Shown: piece after piece, positions 9,380-51,112 of the stretch
Position numbering within the stretch: position 1 is the first letter of the stretch
Layout: each line of letters begins with the position of its first letter
Origin: an uncultured Candidatus Saccharibacteria bacterium
Lineage (GTDB): Bacteria; Patescibacteriota; Minisyncoccia; Phycocordibacterales; UBA5272
Reading direction: 5' to 3'
Assembly: GCA_964546555.1 (NCBI GenBank)
Contig: CAZJJX010000002.1
Coordinates: 16,263-80,262, forward strand
DNA length: 64,000 nt
The notes under the pieces: generated by a model
The model's database searches: none
Told to the model about the DNA's origin: nothing
What the model saw: only the letters and a program-made list of their open reading frames with translations
Position numbers and translations under genes: made by a program

Positions 9380-9512
9380 GAGATATTCTAGATAACTAGT
9401 AGAACCTTAATAATTAAGGGAGTCATTGCACTCTAAAGCAAGGTGGTACCACGGTTTATAAAAATCGTCCTTGAGAAAACAAGCACATTGTTTTCTTAGG
9501 GGCGATTTTTGC
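9380..9512 (+). promoter_or_regulatory. compact T-box riboswitch leader of ileS
   Basis: T-box motif 'AGCAAGGUGGUACCACGG' (9435-9454). Antiterminator: CAAGG / 7-nt bulge UGGUACC / ACGG ... UCGU-CCUUG. Mutually exclusive terminator hairpin AATCGTCCTTGAGAAAACAA...TTGTTTTCTTAGGGGCGATT + TTTTT (9462-9510). Short stem-loop with AUAA in loop (9386-9404). Confidence 0.6.
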
Positions 9513-9553
9513 TTTATATTACTACTAACGCGTTATCAATTACATTTATTACT

Positions 9554-12500
9554 ATGCCTCCAAAATCAATTTCAGAAAAAGAACAAGAAGTGCTCAAATT
9601 CTGGGAAGATAATCACATCTTTGAAAAGTCAGTCAATATGCCTGCAGGCGAACAAGCGCGGGGTAACTTTTCATTTTATGACGGACCACCGTTTGCAACG
9701 GGCCTACCACACTACGGACATATCTTAGCTGGAACTATTAAGGATGCAGTTCCACGTTATCAGACGATGAAAGGAAACTCTGTTCGTCGTGTGTGGGGGT
9801 GGGATTGTCATGGGCTTCCCATTGAAAATTTGATTGAAAAGAAACTTGGGCTTGCAAGTAAAAAGGATATAGAAGATTTTGGAATTGATAAGTTTAATAA
9901 TGATGCGTACCAAAGTGTGCTTCAGTATGAAGAAGAGTGGAAGGGTATTGTTCCGCGTCTTGGAAGATGGATCGATATGGAAAAACCGTATAAGACAATG
10001 GATGCATCATATACGGAAAGTATTTGGTGGGCATGGAAGTCACTCTATGAAAAAAAACTTGCATACGAAGGCAACAAGATGATGCACATTTGTCCTCGTT
10101 GTGAAACAACACTTGCCCAGAGTGAGGTAGGTATGGAGTATCACGATGTTACAGATATTTCCGTCACCGCAAAATTTGAGCTTAAAGATGAGCCGGAAAC
10201 ATTTGTTCTTGCGTGGACAACAACACCATGGACTCTCCCTGGCAATACCGCGCTTGCTATTAATATAGCAATTCCTTATGTAAAAGTGCGAGCTACAAAA
10301 AATGACGGAGTGATAGAATTTTATATTTTAGCAGAAGCAAAGTTTGCAGATTATAAGGTCTATGCAGAAAAAGATTTTAGTAATTTTGAAATAGTGGAGC
10401 AATTACAAGGAAGTGAGCTTGTTGGTAAAACATACAAACCGGTGTTTCCGTATTTTGAAAATGCTGATATAGAAAACAAAGAACATATTTGGAAAGTTTG
10501 GCATGCAGATTTTATTACAGCAGACACTGGAACTGGTATTGCTCACGAAGCTCCAGCATTTGGTGCTGAGGACATGGAACTTGCCAAGGCGCATAAGATT
10601 CCTATTATCAAGCATGTGAAAATGGATGGAACATTTACTTCATCTGTAACAGATTTTGCTGGGATGAAAGTAAAAGTAAAAGACGACACCCAGTCTGCAG
10701 ACATTGAGATTATTAAGTGGCTTGCTCATAATGGTAAGCTCTTTGAGAAGCATAAAATTATTCACTCGTATCCACTTTGTTGGCGATGTAAAACACCGCT
10801 TCTTAACTATGCAACATCGTCGTGGTTTGTGGATGTTCCGAAAATAAAGGAGAAGCTTCTTAGTGAGAACAAGCAGATTGGATGGACGCCATCTCATACC
10901 CGTGACGGACGTTTCGGTAAATGGCTTGAAGGTGCTCGTGAGTGGGCTGTGTCACGTTCAAGATACTGGGGTGCACCACTTCCTGTATGGAAGAATAGTG
11001 ATGGTAGTGAAGTAAAAGTAATTGGCTCACTCAAAGAGCTTGCAGAAGCTAATATGGTAAAGCCAAAGAATACATATTTTGCTATGCGTCATGGGGAATC
11101 TGTTTTTAATACACTTAATAAATTAGATTCACTAGGAAATAAAGATAATGTTCTTACCAAAAAAGGTGTTGGTCAAATAAAGGAAGCAATTAGTAAGCTT
11201 AAGGATCTTAAGGTTGATGTTATTATCTCTTCACCATTACCTCGTACAATAGAGAGTGCGGAGATTCTGTCAGAGGCACTTGGTATCAAGTATGAGGTTG
11301 ATGAAAACTTGCGAGAATTTAATTTTGGGGAGTACGAAAATGTCTCAGCATCAGAGTTTCATGAGATGAAAGATATTCACGAGAATCCATATAAGCGAGT
11401 TCCAGGTGGAGAGTCGTTTAAGGATGGTGCGTACAGATTCATGAAAGTTGTTGGTGCATGCGAAGAGAATTATACAAATAAAAAGATCCTCCTTGTTACT
11501 CATGGATCACATGTCTATATGGGTACTCGTGAAGCAGAATTAGTAACAGATGAGATGATGATACATGGAGGAAAAGACGGACATACAATCAATGTTAAAA
11601 ATGGAGACGTTGTTTCTTTTACTCCACACTGTGTTCCTCGAGATGAGACTGGTGCAGTTAATCTCCATCGTCCATACATTGACCAGATTGAGATGATTGA
11701 CAGTAAAGGAAATCCTATGAAGCGTATAGGGGATGTGTTTGACTGTTGGTTTGAGTCTGGGTCTATGCCGTTTGCGTCTATTCATTATCCATTTGAGAAT
11801 AAAGAAGTTTTTGATAAAAATTATCCAGCGCAGTTTATTGCGGAGGGGATGGATCAGACCAGAGGTTGGTTCTACTCGCTCATTAACCTTGGTGTTGGAT
11901 TATTTGATAAGGCACCCTATGAACATGTGATAGTAAATGGGTTAGTGCTTGCGTCTTCAGGAGTAAAGCTCTCTAAGAGTGAAAAGAATTACACTGACCC
12001 GATGGAGCTTGTAGAGAAGTATGGAGCTGATGCAATGCGTTATGCGCTTCTGTCTTCTCCTGTCGTAAAAGGTGAGAACTTACAATTTGATGATGAGAAT
12101 ATTTCTGATGTGTATAAGAAATGCATTAGTCGACTCGAAAACGTTGTAACACTCTATGAGATGAATAAGGAAGATGAGGTGCAAGCATCAACAAGTTCAA
12201 CAAACATACTCGATAGATGGATGGTTGCACGTATGCACGAGCTTGTAGAAAGCTCTACTCGTGGTTATGATCAATACTTACTCGATGACGCTACTCGAGG
12301 AATAGGAGATATCATAGATGATATATCAGTTTGGTATACACGTAGAAGTCGCGAGCGTCTTAAGGGTGATGAAGGAGAGGACGCAAAGCGCGAAGCATAC
12401 CAAACACTTACTTACACGTTACTTACACTTGCAAAAATCATGGCACCAGTGATGCCATTTATCGCCGAGCGAGTCTATAAAGCAGTTGGCGGAGAAAAGG

Positions 12501-13009
12501 AGTCGGTACATCTTGATAGTTGGCCTACAGAAAGTGCTATCGACACTGATCTCATTACTGATATGAAATTAGTTCGTGAGCTTGTATCACTTGGTCTTAT
12601 GAAGCGCACAGAGTCAAAGATAAACGTGAAGCAACCATTACTTTCAGTAACTTTTAATAGAGCTCTTGATGAAAAGTATTTCGGTCTGATAATCGATGAG
12701 CTCAATGTTAAAGAAGTAAAGATTGACGAAACCTCAATAGTCGACGTGATACTTAATACAACCATTACAGAAGAATTACAAAAAGAAGGAGATATGCGTA
12801 AGCTCATGCGTGCTATTCAGGATGCCCGAAAAGAAAAAGGACTATCTCCAAGTGATAGTGTTACTCTTATCGTTTCCTCTCTTACGCTTCTTTCAGACGA
12901 TACCCAACTTCGTGCAACCTGTAAAATATCTTCAATCAAAGAAGATGTGTCTATTGTGTCTAATCCAACAGATTTTTCTCAACACACTTTGTATTTTGGT
13001 ATTGAATAA
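9554..13009 (+). CDS. ileS: isoleucine--tRNA ligase, type 2 (eukaryote-like) with an inserted histidine-phosphatase domain
   Basis: 'FYDGPPFATGLPHYGHIL' (HIGH), CP1 editing region, 'RVGDVFDCWFESGSMP' and 'NLHRPYID' type-2 blocks, 'KLSKS' (KMSKS). Start taken at MPPKSI (ORF track 9509). Confidence 0.9.
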   Translation: MPPKSISEKEQEVLKFWEDNHIFEKSVNMPAGEQARGNFSFYDGPPFATGLPHYGHILAGTIKDAVPRYQTMKGNSVRRVWGWDCHGLPIENLIEKKLGLASKKDIEDFGIDKFNNDAYQSVLQYEEEWKGIVPRLGRWIDMEKPYKTMDASYTESIWWAWKSLYEKKLAYEGNKMMHICPRCETTLAQSEVGMEYHDVTDISVTAKFELKDEPETFVLAWTTTPWTLPGNTALAINIAIPYVKVRATKNDGVIEFYILAEAKFADYKVYAEKDFSNFEIVEQLQGSELVGKTYKPVFPYFENADIENKEHIWKVWHADFITADTGTGIAHEAPAFGAEDMELAKAHKIPIIKHVKMDGTFTSSVTDFAGMKVKVKDDTQSADIEIIKWLAHNGKLFEKHKIIHSYPLCWRCKTPLLNYATSSWFVDVPKIKEKLLSENKQIGWTPSHTRDGRFGKWLEGAREWAVSRSRYWGAPLPVWKNSDGSEVKVIGSLKELAEANMVKPKNTYFAMRHGESVFNTLNKLDSLGNKDNVLTKKGVGQIKEAISKLKDLKVDVIISSPLPRTIESAEILSEALGIKYEVDENLREFNFGEYENVSASEFHEMKDIHENPYKRVPGGESFKDGAYRFMKVVGACEENYTNKKILLVTHGSHVYMGTREAELVTDEMMIHGGKDGHTINVKNGDVVSFTPHCVPRDETGAVNLHRPYIDQIEMIDSKGNPMKRIGDVFDCWFESGSMPFASIHYPFENKEVFDKNYPAQFIAEGMDQTRGWFYSLINLGVGLFDKAPYEHVIVNGLVLASSGVKLSKSEKNYTDPMELVEKYGADAMRYALLSSPVVKGENLQFDDENISDVYKKCISRLENVVTLYEMNKEDEVQASTSSTNILDRWMVARMHELVESSTRGYDQYLLDDATRGIGDIIDDISVWYTRRSRERLKGDEGEDAKREAYQTLTYTLLTLAKIMAPVMPFIAERVYKAVGGEKESVHLDSWPTESAIDTDLITDMKLVRELVSLGLMKRTESKINVKQPLLSVTFNRALDEKYFGLIIDELNVKEVKIDETSIVDVILNTTITEELQKEGDMRKLMRAIQDARKEKGLSPSDSVTLIVSSLTLLSDDTQLRATCKISSIKEDVSIVSNPTDFSQHTLYFGIE
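11066..11560 (+). other. in-frame inserted histidine phosphatase (PGAM/branch-1) domain within IleRS
   Basis: 'YFAMRHGESVFN' (RHGE catalytic His motif), 'VIISSPLPRTIESAEIL', 'ILLVTHGSHV' (C-terminal HG). Lies between the 'WGAPLPVW...VIGSLKELAEA' and 'NLHRPYID' blocks that are ~40 aa apart in ordinary type-2 IleRS. Confidence 0.7.
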
Positions 13010-44314: not shown

Positions 44315-44711
44315 TGGTGGAGATGGCGAGAATCGAACTCGCGTGTACTAAGGTATGAGGTATGGGTCTACTGTACGTAGTTTGCTTCATGTGTTCGCAT
44401 TCATTATTAAAAGCAAACTAAAGCAATGAATGTATAGCATGAATTATTTCAAGTATAGTGTTATGCAACACTGTGCTCTACATCTACTGTTATATTGCCA
44501 GCAGTCATCCCGTAGATGCGAACGAAAGTGACACCAGATCGGCCAGTAATTTAGGCGAATGCTGGAACTAGTCCGTTTGCCATGTATGGTGAACGGATAG
44601 CCTTACCAGTTGAGTTTGCAACATGGTCTCTCCGGTCTTTTACGAGTTGCGGAGAATTCTCGGTACAGCACATACAACATATTCTTAGTATCGATGCCAA
44701 AGATCATCCCC
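44315..44711 (-). ncRNA. ssrA: tmRNA (SsrA), ~397 nt; predicted tag (A)ANGLVPAFA
   Basis: 3' tRNA-like end 'GCGAG-TTCGATT-CTCGC-CATCTCC-A-CCA' (44315-44343); 5' 'GGGGGATGATCTTTGGCATCGATAC' pairs to give a G3:U70 acceptor stem; internal 'GCA AAC GGA CTA GTT CCA GCA TTC GCC TAA' (44551-44580); smpB 400 bp away. Confidence 0.75.
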
Positions 44712-46027: not shown

Positions 46028-47923
46028 ATGCAAAAGATGAAATTCCCAAAACTTACTAAGCAGTCCAAACAACAAAAGGAAGATCAGTCTTCCCAGGCAA
46101 AACCAACAAGCTTTGCTCAACAACTTTTTGGAGTTTTTATTATCTTCATGTTTTTGTCATGGGGGTACTCAATTATTAGCGAAAAGAAGGCGACACCAGT
46201 TGTGCCTATTTCAGAGTTCGCACAAAAGGTTGCAACACGAGAAATCGTGGCTATTGATGTAGAAGGGAGCTCTCTTACTGGGAAAAAAGCAGACGATACA
46301 AAAATAGTGACTAAGAAAGAAGATGGAGCGTCTGTATTTTCAACACTCTCTGCATATGGGGTTAGTACAAGCACCCTTGCAACAACGACAATAACTATTT
46401 CTTCTGATAGGGGTGCATCTTTTTGGGTTTCACTTATTCCAATTATCCTCCCGATCCTTTTCCTTGCGTTTATGATTTGGTGGTTAGCTCGTGGCATCAA
46501 AGGTGCGAATGTACAAGCGCTTTCATTTGGTCAGTCTCGTGCAAAAGTTATTTATCCAGATGACACAAAAGAAAAAATTCTTTTCAAGGACGTGGCTGGT
46601 GCAAAAGAAGCAAAAGAAGAACTGGAAGAAATCGTAGAGTTTTTGCGTGCGCCAAAGAAGTTTACTGATATTGGTGCAGAGATTCCAAAAGGTGTCCTTC
46701 TTATGGGTGCACCAGGAACAGGTAAGACTATGCTTGCTCGTGCTGTGGCTGGGGAGGCAGGAGTGCCGTTCTTCCATTTATCTGGATCGGAGTTCGAAGA
46801 GATGTTTGTTGGTGTCGGGGCATCACGCGTGCGTGATCTTTTCGATATGGCAAAGAAAGCCGCACCTGCAATCATCTTCATTGATGAAATAGATGCGGTT
46901 GGACGAAGTAGATCTACAACAATAGGTGGGCAAGGAGAAGCTCGCGAACAGACACTCAATCAGATACTTGTAGAGATGGATGGATTCGAGCCAACAATGA
47001 ATCTCATTGTTATGGCGGCAACGAACCGTCCTGACGTGCTCGATAAAGCACTACTTCGTCCTGGACGTTTTGATCGTCGAGTGACACTTGATCTTCCTGA
47101 TCGTAATGATCGTGAAGAGATTCTTTCTGTTCATATAAAGTCTAAGCCACTTGCAGAAGACGTGAATCTTAAGGTAATCGCAGAAAGAACACCAGGGTTT
47201 TCTGGTGCAGATCTGTATTCTCTTATGAACGAAAGTGCGATCTTAGCTGCGCGAGAAGGTCGCAAGTCTGTTGCGCAGTATGATCTTATTCGCTCTATCG
47301 AAAAGGTGATGCTTGGTCCAGAGCGAAAGAGTCATGTTCTTTCTGATAAAGAAAAGAAGTTAACGGCATATCACGAAGCAGGACATGCTCTTGTCGCATC
47401 AGTATTGCCTGATGCTGATCCTGTGCATAAGATATCTATTATTGCTCGCGGTAATGCCGGAGGATACACACTTAAGCTCCCACTTGATGACAGGCGACTC
47501 ATGAGTCGTGCGACGTTTTTGGATGATATTGCAATGTCACTTGGTGGATATGTAGCAGAAAAAGAAATCTTTGGAGACATTACTACGGGACCATCAAATG
47601 ATCTAGAGGTTGCGTCCAAGATGGCTCGTCAGATGGTGATGCGATACGGTATGAGTACACTTGGGCCGATTGCTTTTGATGCGCGCAATGAGACACTTTT
47701 AGGAACTAAGGAATACAGCGAAGAATATGCACAGAAGATTGACGATGAAGTAAAGCGCATCATGGATGAGGCGTGGAATAGAGCACGGCTTATCATTACC
47801 GACAAACGGCATGTGCTCACAGCGATAGCAGAGGAGCTTATGCGTGTTGAGAATATCGAGCGTGAAGAGTTTGAGAAGCTTCTTGTTTTACACGGTATCG
47901 CACCAAAGAAGAAAGAGATGTAA
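46028..47923 (+). CDS. ftsH: ATP-dependent zinc metalloprotease FtsH
   Basis: Walker A 'GAPGTGKT', SRH region, 'HEAGHAL' zinc-binding motif, two N-terminal TMs. Confidence 0.9.
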
Positions 47924-48055
47924 GAAAGGGGGGTGATGGGGAAGAAATAAGGGTGGAGGCGAAGCCTCCACCCTTATTTCTTCCCCATAGAAACATTTGC
48001 TATTTTTTGCTATAGTACAGTAACAAAATAGTAAGTAACGTCGTATCAGCAAAGT

Positions 48056-48128
48056 GCATCCATAGCTCAGTTGGTAGAGCCGTCGTCTTATACACGACTG
48101 GTCCCTGGTTCGAGTCCAGGTGGATGCA
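48056..48128 (+). tRNA. tRNA-Ile, anticodon UAU (reads AUA); CCA not encoded
   Basis: Cloverleaf by hand: acceptor GCATCCA/TGGATGC, D GCTC/GAGC, anticodon stem GTCGT/ACGAC with loop CTTATAC (U33, anticodon TAT, A37), T arm CCTGG-TTCGAGT-CCAGG, discriminator A. Confidence 0.75.
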
Positions 48129-48173
48129 CTTTGGGGATAAGGTGCGAATGAAATCAAAATACGATGTAGTATA
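48117..48173 (+). repeat. 57-bp direct repeat, copy 1 (includes tRNA 3' end)
   Basis: 'CAGGTGGATGCACTTTGGGGATAAGGTGCGAATGAAATCAAAATACGATGTAGTATA'. Confidence 0.8.
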
Positions 48174-48226
48174 CACGACTGATTCTTTGTTCTCGTTTTT
48201 ATGGCCAAGCCATGAATCTGCTGATT

Positions 48227-48283
48227 CAGGTGGATGCACTTTGGGGATAAGGTACGAATGAAATCAATTTACGATGAAGTATA
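48227..48283 (+). repeat. 57-bp direct repeat, copy 2 (degenerate copy of tRNA 3' half + flank)
   Basis: 'CAGGTGGATGCACTTTGGGGATAAGGTACGAATGAAATCAATTTACGATGAAGTATA'; preceded by 'TATACACGACTG' echoing the tRNA anticodon arm. Confidence 0.8.
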
Positions 48284-48446
48284 AATGACCAACTTGAGTC
48301 ATCTGTTGATTTTGTAATACGTAATGGTATTTGTGTTGTAATTTTTTATATCCGCTTTACAAGCATGCTTTCAAGGAGTAGCATAGAGAGAGTGCTTCTT
48401 AAAAAGAGAAGTGCTGATCTCTAATCTACAACTAAGGAGATTCAGG

Positions 48447-48809
48447 ATGGCAGATACAACACAAGGCAACTCTCACATCATTGAGAGCTGCTGGCAAACT
48501 GGCAAAGGAGAACAAGATCTTGGCTCACAACAAGACAAAACTTCTACAACACAGAATCCATGCAGGCGAGTGCTTCCTGGAAGTACTGACTGCCGTGGAC
48601 AAATTGAAAAGAGTAAATGTGTTTTTCAACAAGTAGGTGAACATGCTTCGTGTGCAGGTCTGATTCATTCAGCGGGGGCCAACACTGAACAAGCAAAACA
48701 TTTTTTTCGTGTGAAGCGTCTCGAAGACTATCGTTCTACAGAGCAAGGTCTTGGACATCTTTCAAACAAAAGAGCATTACATTCTTCGCCGGTCCCGCTT
48801 AGGGAGTAG
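48447..48809 (+). CDS. hypothetical Cys-rich small protein
   Basis: AAGGAGA RBS before ATG 48447; followed by terminator 48828-48853. Confidence 0.35.
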   Translation: MADTTQGNSHIIESCWQTGKGEQDLGSQQDKTSTTQNPCRRVLPGSTDCRGQIEKSKCVFQQVGEHASCAGLIHSAGANTEQAKHFFRVKRLEDYRSTEQGLGHLSNKRALHSSPVPLRE

Positions 48810-48827
48810 GTGCATATCTGGTGCCAC

Positions 48828-48853
48828 AAAGTCGCGCAAAGCGCGACTTTTTG
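48828..48853. terminator. rho-independent terminator
   Basis: GTCGCGC-AAA-GCGCGAC + TTTTTG. Confidence 0.6.
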
Positions 48854-48889
48854 TATGCATCTACATGTACAGTTTAATGAACTATGGAT

Positions 48890-51112
48890 CTACTCCATAT
48901 GTACTTTTTCCTTTGCATCGATTGTGTTCTTTAGAAGTTCGTGATGTTCCAAAGTAGGATCTTGCTCGACGAGTTTTTTTGCTTCTTGTTGAGCAATATC
49001 TACGAGCTTCGGATTTTTGATTGCTTCCATTGCCAGATCACTTACGCCCCATTGTTTACCATCAAAGAGAGTCCCTATACCGCGTGTGAGCATATCTTGT
49101 TCAGCAAGCTCAAAGCCATTCTTTGCATGTACAAGCGCTTTGAGTCGTGTGTACGTGGTCTCTCCGGTGCTTTCGGTAAAGAGATAACAATATGACTGGT
49201 GCTCTGCTCTTCCTACTCGTCCACGAAGCTGATGGAGTTGCGCAAGTCCGAACCTGTCAGCATGTTCAATAATAATAACTGTTGCGTTTGGGACATTAAC
49301 ACCAACCTCAACAACAGATGTCGCAACCAAGATGTCAGATTTTTTGTCCAAGAAATCTTGCATCACTTCTTCTTTTTCTTCTTTCTTCATTTTGCTATGT
49401 AAAATATCGACAACGAATTCAGGAAAGATCTGGTGTGCGAGTCTGTCTGCTTCTTCTTTGACGCTCTTGAGAATTCTCTTTTGACGCTCTTCCTCATCTT
49501 GCTCATCGATGCGTGGGCAAATAACGTACACTTGTCTCCCAGATTGAAGTTCTTTGCGTACATGCTCATACATCTCACTTCGCTTACTGCTTTTGATTAT
49601 CTCTGTAATAATTTTTTTACGATTCTTCGGCATCGCATCAATAACAGTAAGGTCAAGATCTCCAAACATGGTAAGTGCAAGTGTACGAGGGATAGGGGTT
49701 GCTGTCATTGATAGGAGGTGAGGGATCGTGGAAGCATCGTTTCCGCTTGCAAGTGCTTTTCTTTGCTTTACCCCAAATCTATGTTGTTCATCAATAATGA
49801 CAAGGGCTAATTGTTCGAACTTAACACTCTTTTGAATAAGAGCATGAGTTCCAATGACAATTGATATCTTCCCATCTTTTATCCATGTAAGAAGCTGAGC
49901 GCGTGAGATTGAGGTTGAGTCATCATTTGTTTTGCTCGGGAACTTCTTACACCCATTTCCAGTAAGTAACCCGATCTCAATCCCTGTTCCTTTGAAATAA
50001 CTAACAAAGCTTTCAAAATGTTGTTTGGCAAGAATTTCAGTTGGAGCCATGTATGCAACTTGTAAGCGTTTACCATGTGTGGTTGCTCTATGACGTAGCA
50101 CAGCATGAGCAACAACCGCTGCAACAAACGTCTTACCACTACCAACATCACCCTCAAGTAGGCGTCCCATAGGCGTGCCGCTTCCCATATCTTCAAGAAT
50201 TGTCTTAATTGCCTGATTTTGAGCATCTGTTGGGGTGAAAGGGAATGTTCCAATAAACTTTTTCATTTCTTTAGTGTCTGTGGTGATAGTATAAGCATGT
50301 TCATTTTTAGCGGCTGCCTTTTCTTTGTGTTGTTTAACCTGAAGATGAAAAATTTCTTCGAATGCAAATCGTTTTCGTGCTGCAATTGTAAGATCTTCAG
50401 ATTTTGGAAAATGAATATAGAGTAGCGCCTCACGAAGTGTGGGCAAGTGTAGACGCTTACAGAGTTCTTGAGGAAGTGTGTCTTCTACAAAATCAAGAAT
50501 ATTTGTAGCGAGGGCTTTCTTAAGAAGGCTCTGGATGTAGAGCGATGTAACACCTTTTGTTTCTGGATAAATAGGGGTTAGCAGGGACATGTCTTTTTTA
50601 TTCAGTGATTTCCCTGCATCTGTTTCTCTTTGTTCTGCCATTGTTGTAAAGAGGGATTCTCCGCTTTCGGGAATGATAGATACTTTTTCAATGCTTGGGT
50701 TTGAAAGAAATATTCCTTTACTGTCTTCTTGGACGATTCCTGACACGCGAACCTTTGTGCCATCAGGGTACATCTTGCCAATATATGCTTGGTTAAACCA
50801 GATGCATCTGATGTGACCTGTGTTATCTACAACACGTGCTTCAGTCATTGGAATATGCCCTCGGAAACTTCTTCGGACTGCAACTTTTTCCATGATACCG
50901 TAGAGTACGATTGACTGACCTTTTGTAAGGTTTGTAGCACCTGTCATACCTTCCATGTTTACATAGCGTAATGGAAAATGTCTAAGAAGTTCCTCGATTG
51001 TTGTAATGTGCAGTCGAAGTAATCCAGCTTTATGATCAGAGGATAGACGGGTGAGAGACTCAAGAGATGATCTAAGGTTATAGGTATTAGGTTGTAGGTT
51101 TAAAGGGTTCAT
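48890..51112 (-). CDS. recG: ATP-dependent DNA helicase RecG
   Basis: Wedge/OB N-domain, 'GDVGSGKTFVAAV' Walker A, 'DEQHRFGV' DEQH box, helicase C motifs 'LHSKMKKEEKE', 'TSVVEVGVNVPNA', 'QLRGRVGR'. Confidence 0.85.
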   Translation of the reverse strand: MNPLNLQPNTYNLRSSLESLTRLSSDHKAGLLRLHITTIEELLRHFPLRYVNMEGMTGATNLTKGQSIVLYGIMEKVAVRRSFRGHIPMTEARVVDNTGHIRCIWFNQAYIGKMYPDGTKVRVSGIVQEDSKGIFLSNPSIEKVSIIPESGESLFTTMAEQRETDAGKSLNKKDMSLLTPIYPETKGVTSLYIQSLLKKALATNILDFVEDTLPQELCKRLHLPTLREALLYIHFPKSEDLTIAARKRFAFEEIFHLQVKQHKEKAAAKNEHAYTITTDTKEMKKFIGTFPFTPTDAQNQAIKTILEDMGSGTPMGRLLEGDVGSGKTFVAAVVAHAVLRHRATTHGKRLQVAYMAPTEILAKQHFESFVSYFKGTGIEIGLLTGNGCKKFPSKTNDDSTSISRAQLLTWIKDGKISIVIGTHALIQKSVKFEQLALVIIDEQHRFGVKQRKALASGNDASTIPHLLSMTATPIPRTLALTMFGDLDLTVIDAMPKNRKKIITEIIKSSKRSEMYEHVRKELQSGRQVYVICPRIDEQDEEERQKRILKSVKEEADRLAHQIFPEFVVDILHSKMKKEEKEEVMQDFLDKKSDILVATSVVEVGVNVPNATVIIIEHADRFGLAQLHQLRGRVGRAEHQSYCYLFTESTGETTYTRLKALVHAKNGFELAEQDMLTRGIGTLFDGKQWGVSDLAMEAIKNPKLVDIAQQEAKKLVEQDPTLEHHELLKNTIDAKEKVHME
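51073..51098. repeat. 26-bp inverted repeat, left arm (overlaps first codons of recG)
   Basis: 'AGGTTATAGGTATTAGGTTGTAGGTT' = reverse complement of 51481-51506 with 1 mismatch (G.U in plus-strand RNA). Confidence 0.8.

Follow-up and report, generated by a model that had tools for sequence, protein, structure and literature searches.

The stretch of DNA analysed here, 64,000 nucleotides (nt) of contig CAZJJX010000002.1 from an uncultured Candidatus Saccharibacteria bacterium (in the following, the window), carries between ftsH and recG a gene for tRNA-Ile with the anticodon UAU, and this gene is followed by a direct repeat that includes its own 3' end. Comparison with the corresponding loci of related species leads us to favour, at a probability of roughly 0.55, the view that an older tRNA-Ile(UAU) gene was split at its anticodon (TAT) by the insertion of a co-oriented cassette consisting of leader, tRNA and trailer, and that the repeat represents the fossil remains of the split gene. 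The original prediction, made from the sequence of the window, had taken the repeat as a remnant of integration or excision at a tRNA gene. It stood in so far as the repeat is probably left over from the splitting of a tRNA gene, but the cause that it named, an integrase, did not.

A single tRNA was called by ARAGORN in the 64-kb window, namely a tRNA-Ile with the anticodon tat at 48056-48129 (+). The Rfam tRNA model matched over its full length at 48056-48128 with 68.5 bits (gathering score 29). With tat at position 34 in the ARAGORN call, the gene is a canonical cloverleaf tRNA, as had been predicted. The gene, annotated at 48056-48128 (+), does not encode CCA; CTTTGG follows directly after A73. 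A tRNA-Ile(tat) gene was found beside ftsH in about 40 related species, i.e., in nearly every relative with a long enough contig. The exact 73-nt sequence of the window was present in 11 of the 40 loci compared (the window and 39 relatives), and the stem differences among the other loci were compensatory. Because it is conserved beside ftsH, shows compensatory stem changes and belongs to a genome that uses AUA codons regularly (see below), we regard tRNA-Ile(UAU) as a functional gene kept by selection and not as a one-off pseudogene.

The gene is predicted to be part of a larger precursor unit. A consensus scan placed a sigma-70-like promoter at 47988-48016 (+; TAGAAA, 17 nt, TG-extended TATAGT), and transcription would thus start at about the first base of the leader (about 2-3 nt before it). 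The motif TTTTTGNTATAGT also precedes the tRNA, or the outermost 5' half described below, in relatives. The 30-nt leader (48026-48055, +), annotated with RNAalifold as the 5' strand of a stalk, ends with CAAAGT and pairs with A73 and CTTTG. Its counterpart is a 41-nt trailer (trailer-0; 48129-48169, +), the 3' strand of the stalk, which was delimited by alignment and RNAalifold, contains the conserved motif CGAATGAA...AAAATACG..TAG and is 93% identical to the trailer of a related locus, L003 (loci other than the window are designated by L numbers). Alignment A1 comprised 17 units, each with 33 nt upstream, the tRNA and 44 nt downstream. RNAalifold predicted that leader and trailer pair over their entire length to form a stalk of about 23 bp which extends the acceptor stem via U(-1):A73, and compensatory changes were found in 27 of the 46 predicted pairs (stalk and tRNA stems) across the 17 loci. 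Two stalk types, A (caaagt/actttg) and B (ttaagt/acttag), agree in lengths and junctions and show no relationship in primary sequence; tttagt/actaag, ttgagt/actcag and aaggt/acctt occur as additional variants. Because of the compensatory pairs, and because unrelated sequence types retain the same lengths and boundaries, the alignment argues that the stalk is real. Copies of leader or trailer at other places were found in none of the loci compared, the trailer occurring only beside tRNA-Ile(UAU). The tRNA-Ser(CGA) gene of relatives has no comparable stalk. Downstream of that gene (L012:6700-6810, L056:3000-3100), part of its 3' end is repeated in inverted orientation, and this copy is broken by a 23-nt palindrome with CCAC on both flanks.

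Three other interpretations of the flanking sequences were discarded. The idea that the trailer end (CGTCTTAG) duplicates nt 29-36 of the tRNA was dropped since it applies to about one unit in two only. A resemblance to a hammerhead, suspected from conserved motifs in trailer and leader, was ruled out by eye and by Rfam. Finally, an origin from three tandem genes, with the leader as a decayed 3' half and the trailer as a decayed 5' half, did not fit the lengths and sequences.

The 57-bp repeat with 4 mismatches at a spacing of 110 bp, as described in the original prediction, was recovered by BLAST (92.98% identity in the 57-nt core, equivalent to 4 mismatches). It could be extended to 63 nt at 90% identity (48117-48179 versus 48227-48289, 110 nt from start to start), a match of a length and quality that cannot be attributed to chance. 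The degenerate copy of the anticodon arm noticed between the repeats was found as well: the 3' strand of the anticodon arm and the variable region (48089-48111) reappear at 48170-48192 with 83% identity over 23 nt. The order of segments in the window is nt 1-33 of the tRNA; nt 34-73 with a 41-nt trailer; nt 34-73 with an insert, again with a trailer; and a degenerate segment beginning with TATAAATGAC.... In terms of these segments, the repeat of 57-63 nt is to be read as the tRNA end plus trailer-0 on one side and the end of a first-level (level-1) fossil plus its trailer on the other.

The level-1 fossil 3' half (nt 34-73: TATACACGACTG...CAGGTGGATGCA) was assigned to 48170-48238 (+) by the repeat search and by its colinearity with L080, L001 and L003. 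It starts at +114 from the start of the tRNA, i.e., with a period of 81 nt, and its former T-loop is interrupted by an insert of 30 nt (48193-48222); hairpins lie at 48201-48213 and 48214-48227. Pairing in the second hairpin is kept in all five copies, with compensatory changes in four of five pairs. The fossil is 78-86% identical to the shells of L001, L003 and L080 and, when joined to the 5' half of the tRNA, no longer scores as a tRNA. It is followed by trailer-1 (41 nt; 48239-48279, +), which was found by the repeat search and the L080 alignment and is identical to trailer-0 at 37 of 41 positions; in relatives, 3' fossils are likewise each trailed by a trailer of their own. A strongly degenerate level-2 fossil 3' half (TATAAATGACCAACTTGAG...) was placed at 48280-48320 (+), in register with the level-2 half of L080 (TACACACAACTAGTCC...) in alignment A2; with 50% identity between the two, it is the weakest part of the annotation. 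The region 48129-48330 as a whole is colinear with L080, where a trailer, an insert-bearing half (TCGT(T/A)TTTATGGCCAAGCCATGAAT...), a second trailer and a weaker second half follow each other. An insert-bearing 3' half occurs once in L001 and twice in L003. No 5' half was detected upstream of the tRNA in the window. Tandem Repeats Finder reported no array at this locus because the two units differ by the insertion of about 29-30 nt.

To place these findings in a wider context, FtsH was used to collect 78 loci, Spiroplasma among them, from one genome per species, and up to 10 kb on each side of ftsH were examined in relatives. An exact look-up of the FtsH protein found no record. Loci close in FtsH (71-87% identity) were from metagenome-assembled genomes of Candidatus Paceibacterota, Nomurabacteria and Parcubacteria, some of them otherwise labelled, and the window is accordingly assigned to a member of the Patescibacteria of the Paceibacteria/Nomurabacteria type. 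Halves were surveyed in the 44 loci with a tRNA by comparing the tRNA of each locus with its own flanks and then with fuzzy patterns. A 5' half (about nt 13-36, ending with CTTAT) was present at -66 in 14 of the 44 loci (at -67 in L044), separated from the tRNA by a 30-nt spacer. A 3' half (nt 34 onwards, starting with TATAC) was present in 12 loci with an exact +81 period and a 41-nt spacer. All halves are co-oriented with the tRNA, the breakpoint is the anticodon in every case, and TAT is found at both junctions. Two levels were observed on both sides in L012 and L049, and two on the 3' side in L080 and the window; overall, the number of levels varies from 0 to 3. Twenty-four of the 44 loci are stalked, with a fixed arrangement of 30-nt leader, tRNA and 41-nt trailer. 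Halves at -66 or +81 are confined to these units and to L066, a locus with a replaced trailer; the other genes, promoter-proximal and unstalked, have no halves in this register. A metagenome scan with the pattern of the 3' junction yielded three further nested loci (L079, L080 and L082), a duplicate of L014 and one chance match. Independent assemblies from many studies with different spacer sequences exclude an assembly artefact. Reconstruction of the outer genes gave a perfect tRNA in L014, still recognisable ones in L034 and L012, and sequences not called as tRNA in L049, L079, L082 and the window. Conservation of the halves peaks beside the junction (nt 15-36 and nt 34-49).

Two further structures were encountered in this survey. 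An insert of about 50 nt, rich in hairpins (GAGACGGCTCGGCCGCGAAGATGTCGAA...), lies between nt 13 and 14 (D-loop) of old tRNA-Ile copies, namely in the outer halves of L001, L003, L005, L079, L080, L082 and L002, and again in L003:1-110 (-) as a tandem repeat after 'TTAGCTC' beside infC. This insert looks like a small site-specific mobile repeat, and small palindromic mobile repeats in these genomes may account for the hairpins in the fossils. The second structure is a candidate structured RNA of about 150 nt, termed Y, which is located downstream of the tRNA in L033 (7507-7655) and also in L031, L025, L024, L013, L005 and L003, but not in the window. Acceptor stem and T-arm 3' strand are common to Y and the neighbouring tRNA-Ile, and in Y a large structured insertion replaces the D and anticodon arms; 24 of its 53 predicted pairs are compensatory in six sequences. 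In Rfam searches of the window region (gathering score; E up to 10) and of relatives, only tRNA and transfer-messenger RNA (tmRNA) were detected, and leader, trailer, halves and Y remained unmatched. The permissive search also produced spurious matches to microRNA families, which originate from an inverted repeat at 47936-47988.

Replacement of a resident gene by the cassette is suggested by the comparison of un-nested and nested loci. When the outer 5' halves of L014, L003, L001 and L079 were paired with the plain tRNAs of L028, L008, L005 and L031, the promoter context with its short leader was identical in 65-67 of 83 columns for the outer 5' half and in 45-50 for the inner gene's own context. 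In addition, no copy of the leader lies upstream of the outer 5' half in these four nested loci. A duplication of the leader together with nt 1-36 cannot explain the outer halves because they sit in native promoter context without an upstream leader copy. Further, the halves can be assigned to each other by allele. L082 has GCACCTG/CAGGTGC outside and GCGCTCA/TGAGCGC inside, L012 and L049 have GCGCCTA/TGGGCGC outside and GCATCCA inside, and the anticodon stem in L049 is GTCGT/ACGAC outside and GACGT/ACGTC inside; in all three loci the two outer halves correspond in allele, and the inner gene differs from both. Cognate leader-trailer duplexes in L012 had predicted energies of -18.6 (inner) and -12.4 kcal/mol (outer), as compared to -10.0 and -3.7 kcal/mol for the crossed combinations. 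The argument for insertion is nevertheless carried by the promoter-context comparisons because matches between halves, taken alone, also fit frozen duplicates.

Over 780 species pairs, tRNA differences were not correlated with the distance in FtsH (Spearman rho 0.056, p = 0.12). For the ten pairs of closest species the mean difference in the tRNA was 5.9 nt, the same as for distant pairs; among the closest pairs there were differences of up to 9 nt, and distant species had identical tRNAs. On the FtsH tree, stalked and plain loci, both orientations, and the alleles of acceptor and anticodon stems are interleaved. The lack of correlation therefore suggests that the active gene is replaced or exchanged much faster than the genome diverges.

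Local tandem duplication, which the original prediction had offered as an alternative, would require that slippage or unequal sister exchange copied nt 34-73 with the trailer and, separately in relatives, the leader with nt 1-36. The head-to-tail arrangement of units in the window (81 nt, then 110 nt), its 90% identical trailers, and the equality of inner and outer alleles in L003, L014 and L034 are in keeping with such an event, and once direct repeats of 36-40 nt exist they invite unequal exchange that could add levels. As an explanation of the whole pattern we consider it unlikely, however. The outer 5' halves lie directly behind the native promoter without a leader copy and match the genes of sister species that are not nested. 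Loci with an upstream half tend to have a downstream half as well, and the gene is broken at the anticodon throughout, in lineages with saturated synonymous sites. A simple duplication private to the window would also leave unexplained the colinear two-level layout which the window has in common with L080, where the inner and outer trailers differ in subtype, and no tandem array was reported by Tandem Repeats Finder.

Tyrosine integrases often cross over in the anticodon loop of tRNA genes and leave a direct repeat of the 3' part. In the scar originally proposed, an element carrying the 3' part of the tRNA would have integrated at the anticodon loop and later been deleted, so that attL and attR were left close to each other. 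We consider this very improbable, although the 3' copies start at the anticodon TAT as the repeat of a crossover site would, the ftsH-recG interval of relatives holds variable cargo and shows flips in tRNA orientation, and a viral contig (L084) carries a near-identical tRNA-Ile(UAU). The statement that no integrase is nearby holds for the 40 larger open reading frames (ORFs) of the window scanned with Pfam, none of which has a recombinase domain. No recombinase was recognized on reading the ORF lists of the ftsH-recG intervals of 15 relatives, from which 10 ORFs were passed through Pfam. Only the 41-nt trailer, and no element, lies between the copies. The repeat reaches 41 nt beyond the tRNA end. 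Moreover, the spacer is always 41 nt long and pairs with the leader, a regularity that is not expected from random deletion of an element, and an element carrying a 3' part could not produce the co-oriented 5' halves found at a fixed 30-nt spacing in relatives. The viral contig L084 (IMG/VR, 27 kb) has its tRNA-Ile(UAU) at 9828-9903 (-), near-identical to the Paceibacteria gene at nt 10-65, with an encoded CCA, a tRNA-Arg(UCU) nearby, no flanking halves and no stalk. This was the one phage contig with a similar but un-nested tRNA-Ile(UAU) obtained in viral scans, in which the junction pattern was matched by chance only.

Other kinds of inserted elements were examined and found no support. An archaeal-type intron with a bulge-helix-bulge motif is rejected from inspection of the consensus structure: at the 5' junction all bases are paired (UAU with the trailer's AUA), and about 13 nt are unpaired on the 3' side, which is not a 3-4-3 structure. 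For a group I intron, the insert of 147 nt includes a 73-nt tRNA, and no intron or ribozyme was matched in Rfam (E up to 10; relatives at the gathering score). A miniature inverted-repeat transposable element or small insertion sequence might be suspected from TAT at both junctions and complementary ends, but the ends covary as an RNA helix and are found at a single locus. An ORF beside the tRNA of L016 was considered as a homing endonuclease; Pfam detected only a helix-turn-helix (HTH) domain, a PDB search gave nothing, and a LAGLIDADG-like motif seen by eye was not confirmed.

The halves might also be functional as parts of a composite RNA, for example as a processing scaffold, as a pairing partner that tunes maturation, as a protective or terminating structure at the 3' end, or as a precursor resembling that of split tRNAs. 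They are conserved well above synonymous sites, the hairpin in the T-loop insert keeps its pairing through four compensatory pairs, and insertions in outer genes are confined to the D, anticodon and T loops. In the minimum free energy fold of 48023-48330, the leader and the 5' acceptor strand are paired with the distal copy (z = -2.98). We nevertheless judge this explanation to be quite unlikely. Twelve of the 24 stalked loci lack a 3' half at +81 and other loci are unstalked without any halves. Between 0 and 3 levels are present depending on the locus, a tRNA fold has been lost in many of the halves, and the window has no 5' partner. By inspection, the junctions contain no bulge-helix-bulge motif, and Rfam detected no ribozyme or intron. 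Instead of being part of the half itself, the hairpin with the compensatory pairs could stem from a small mobile palindrome.

If an older gene was indeed split by the cassette, the following course of events can be envisaged. A complete cassette would have entered the resident gene, taken over its promoter and made the resident copy dispensable. The second, more decayed 3' half in the window would represent a further level of nesting, and the matching 5' half, located 66 nt upstream in relatives, would have been lost from the genome of the window, possibly by recombination between the direct repeats of 36-40 nt. Extra levels might arise from unequal sister exchange, or from recombination of an intact inner gene with DNA that brings fossil halves along. 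For the entry itself our preferred guess is that, after an initial rare event, incoming or sister DNA recombines via the fossil halves as homology arms. Expression would proceed from the promoter as a transcript of 30-nt leader, tRNA and 41-nt trailer, out of which the tRNA would be cut before CCA is added.

Several observations weigh against a split gene with dead remains. Integrases, transposases or homing endonucleases were absent from the ORFs scanned, and leader and trailer occur at one locus only, which means that the cassette is not a dispersed repeat. The fossils are 78-86% identical, compared to 47-50% at the four-fold degenerate sites of ftsH (37-54% between these species overall, near saturation), and one of their hairpins shows compensatory change. 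Fossils may thus be constrained or turned over by lateral exchange, and to regard them as dead relics is perhaps too simple; lateral exchange of modules, selection as recombination arms or a role in the transcript are possible reasons for their conservation. Further, the 90% similarity of the two trailers in the window also fits a recent local duplication, the identity of inner and outer alleles in L003, L014 and L034 makes an origin within the genome possible, and matching outer halves with cognate leader-trailer pairs would also be expected from frozen old duplicates around an evolving inner gene.

Starting from the split gene, a more far-reaching and rather doubtful proposal is that the stalked unit is a selfish cassette, free of proteins and lacking a promoter, which spreads among Paceibacteria via the anticodon of the resident tRNA-Ile(UAU). 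By using the resident promoter and destroying the resident copy, the cassette would render itself indispensable. The halves of its victim would provide homology arms for the next transfer, which would amount to homing without an intron, a ribozyme or a linked endonuclease.

With respect to decoding, it had been predicted that the tRNA reads AUA without TilS. AUA accounts for 22% of Ile codons and 14.9 per thousand codons in 17 long genes of the window. An isoleucyl-tRNA synthetase (IleRS) of the eukaryote-like type (type 2, MupA/MupB-like) was identified with NCBIfam TIGR00392 and Pfam at 9509-13009 (+). It scored 834 bits on TIGR00392 (ileS; cut-off 621) with MupB and MupA as the next best models, and its Pfam domains are tRNA-synt_1, Anticodon_1, a C-terminal DUF5915 and His_Phos_1 (amino acids 525-671). 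The latter is a complete histidine-phosphatase domain that lies within the catalytic domain, between its two halves, an arrangement that is unusual among aminoacyl-tRNA synthetases. A search for the PP-loop motif of TilS (SGGxDS) in ORFs of at least 150 amino acids was negative in the 64-kb window and in the Patescibacteria loci examined; as a positive control, all seven Spiroplasma loci of the FtsH scan showed tilS just upstream of ftsH. With regard to a tRNA-Ile(CAU), no second tRNA was seen in the window or these Patescibacteria loci. AUA decoding by tRNA-Ile2(UAU) independently of TilS is known from Mycoplasma mobile, Bifidobacterium and Neorickettsia, and Bifidobacterium and Neorickettsia, which lack tilS and have a tRNA-Ile(TAT), possess an IleRS of the eukaryote type (Taniguchi et al. 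2013, PMC3575796). An IleRS that accepts a UAU anticodon would be expected either to have Arg at the wobble-contact site, if of bacterial type, or to be of the eukaryote type. By analogy with that work, from which the link between this IleRS type and recognition of UAU is inferred, the enzyme of the window is the one expected to charge tRNA-Ile(UAU). The mature tRNA would then be charged by the IleRS encoded 35 kb upstream and read AUA without lysidine. The predicted TilS-independent decoding thus fits the tRNA, the use of AUA, the type of IleRS and the lack of tilS within the available sequence. A tRNA-Ile(UAU) of different sequence, with an encoded CCA and located 1 nt from tRNA-Leu(CAG), was seen in L059 (90-166) and L060 (5361-5437, -). 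These loci belong to more distant Patescibacteria (FtsH about 54% identical) whose records are labelled Gammaproteobacteria. The UAU solution may be widespread in the Candidate Phyla Radiation (CPR). In the literature searched, no paper linked lysidine with Patescibacteria or CPR.

The genomic setting of the unit varies among relatives. In the window the tRNA lies between ftsH (46028-47923, +) and recG (48890-51112, -), with smpB, a small GIY-YIG gene and tmRNA as neighbours upstream. The tmRNA (44315-44711, -) reached 86.5 bits with Rfam and was missed by ARAGORN in the window; orthologous tmRNAs with tags such as ADVGYVVA* were found by ARAGORN in several relatives. Directly after ftsH, 47936-47988 forms a perfect 25-bp inverted repeat with a 3-nt loop, presumably a bidirectional terminator. 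The region 48290-48890, used as a query for nhmmer, holds a protein gene and not an RNA. This gene, X (48448-48809, +; promoter at 48356-48384), encodes a small Cys-rich protein (LPGGxDC ... C.G ... GHLSD) of no Pfam family. It is conserved in 13 relatives, always convergent with ftsH and immediately after it. The window has the module of tRNA and X inverted relative to the common order ftsH, X(-), tRNA, and the orientation of the tRNA between ftsH and recG flips among relatives. Their ftsH-recG intervals range from about 170 nt to more than 3 kb and contain genes for a nucleoside 2-deoxyribosyltransferase, DUF6671, membrane proteins and an HTH protein abutting the tRNA (e.g., L014:12603-13040, L044:12502-13353, L023:12437-13471, L016:3587-4252). 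From its variable content and order, the interval appears to be a local hotspot of rearrangement. In four loci (L007:12978-14063, L009:3451-4746, L012:13151-14368, L049:13725-14975, -), recG is apparently split or interrupted; the ORF has an N-terminal domain of about 130 amino acids (...YQPDFII...ELKA..., nuclease-like by eye) which continues in-frame into the C-terminal half of RecG (...HLLSMTATPIPRTLA...).

TilS-independent decoding of AUA is in itself an already known kind of system, to which a large uncultured lineage would be added: it would join the few bacterial groups that read AUA with a UAU anticodon and a eukaryote-like IleRS. To judge from the literature searched, the nested cassette is an undescribed variant of insertion targeted to tRNA genes; searches on nested tRNA genes and on tRNA introns of CPR bacteria returned nothing relevant. 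Nesting would mean that an essential single-copy tRNA gene is repeatedly replaced in place by its own copies, leaving dated fossils. Such self-replacement would be a form of gene turnover, and possibly of selfish spread, of which no description was found. If the cassette is mobile, it would be a minimal model of an element that consists of nothing but a structured RNA gene. Should the halves have a function, they would offer a new way to build or control a tRNA precursor in bacteria with reduced RNA-processing machinery. As tRNA finders report the inner gene only, nested loci are overlooked and can be misread as integration scars.

The features of the locus can be compared with several known systems. 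Like the TilS-independent systems, the window combines a tRNA-Ile with the anticodon TAT, regular use of AUA and a eukaryote-like IleRS; it differs in its host, a CPR bacterium of the Paceibacteria type, and in the additional histidine-phosphatase domain of the IleRS. The stalk recalls rRNA operons, where processing stalks formed by leader and trailer are substrates of RNase III. In both cases a long duplex of flanking sequences encloses a stable RNA and is maintained by compensatory change, but here the duplex, predicted from sequence, flanks a single tRNA.

Among archaeal tRNAs, the halves of Nanoarchaeum equitans with their complementary extensions and the multi-intron tRNAs of Thermoproteales come to mind. 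As in the split tRNAs, a 5' half with its end near the anticodon continues into sequence complementary to that preceding the 3' half, and the outer genes have extra insertions in D and T loops. In contrast, the host is a bacterium, no bulge-helix-bulge is present, the 'intron' contains a working tRNA, and the outer halves decay with no sign of being joined. With tRNA-targeting integrative elements the locus has in common an insertion inside a tRNA gene at the anticodon loop, the partial tRNA repeats left behind, and a gene function that is kept since the incoming DNA supplies tRNA sequence. It differs from them in that the insert, about 147 bp long and without a protein-coding gene, contains a complete tRNA instead of a 3' part, and therefore both the 5' and the 3' half of the old gene are left. 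Moreover, its flanks form a covarying stalk of RNA type and not att arms, and no integrase was found in the ORFs scanned here. The last comparison is with homing, either of introns or without introns by free-standing endonucleases such as SegB in the tRNA gene region of phage T4. Here, no endonuclease gene was identified, and the presumed invader is unspliced and replaces the function of the gene that it breaks. Common to both would be the repeated invasion of one conserved site in an essential gene, a distribution that is patchy with respect to the species tree, and an inheritance that favours the invading allele.

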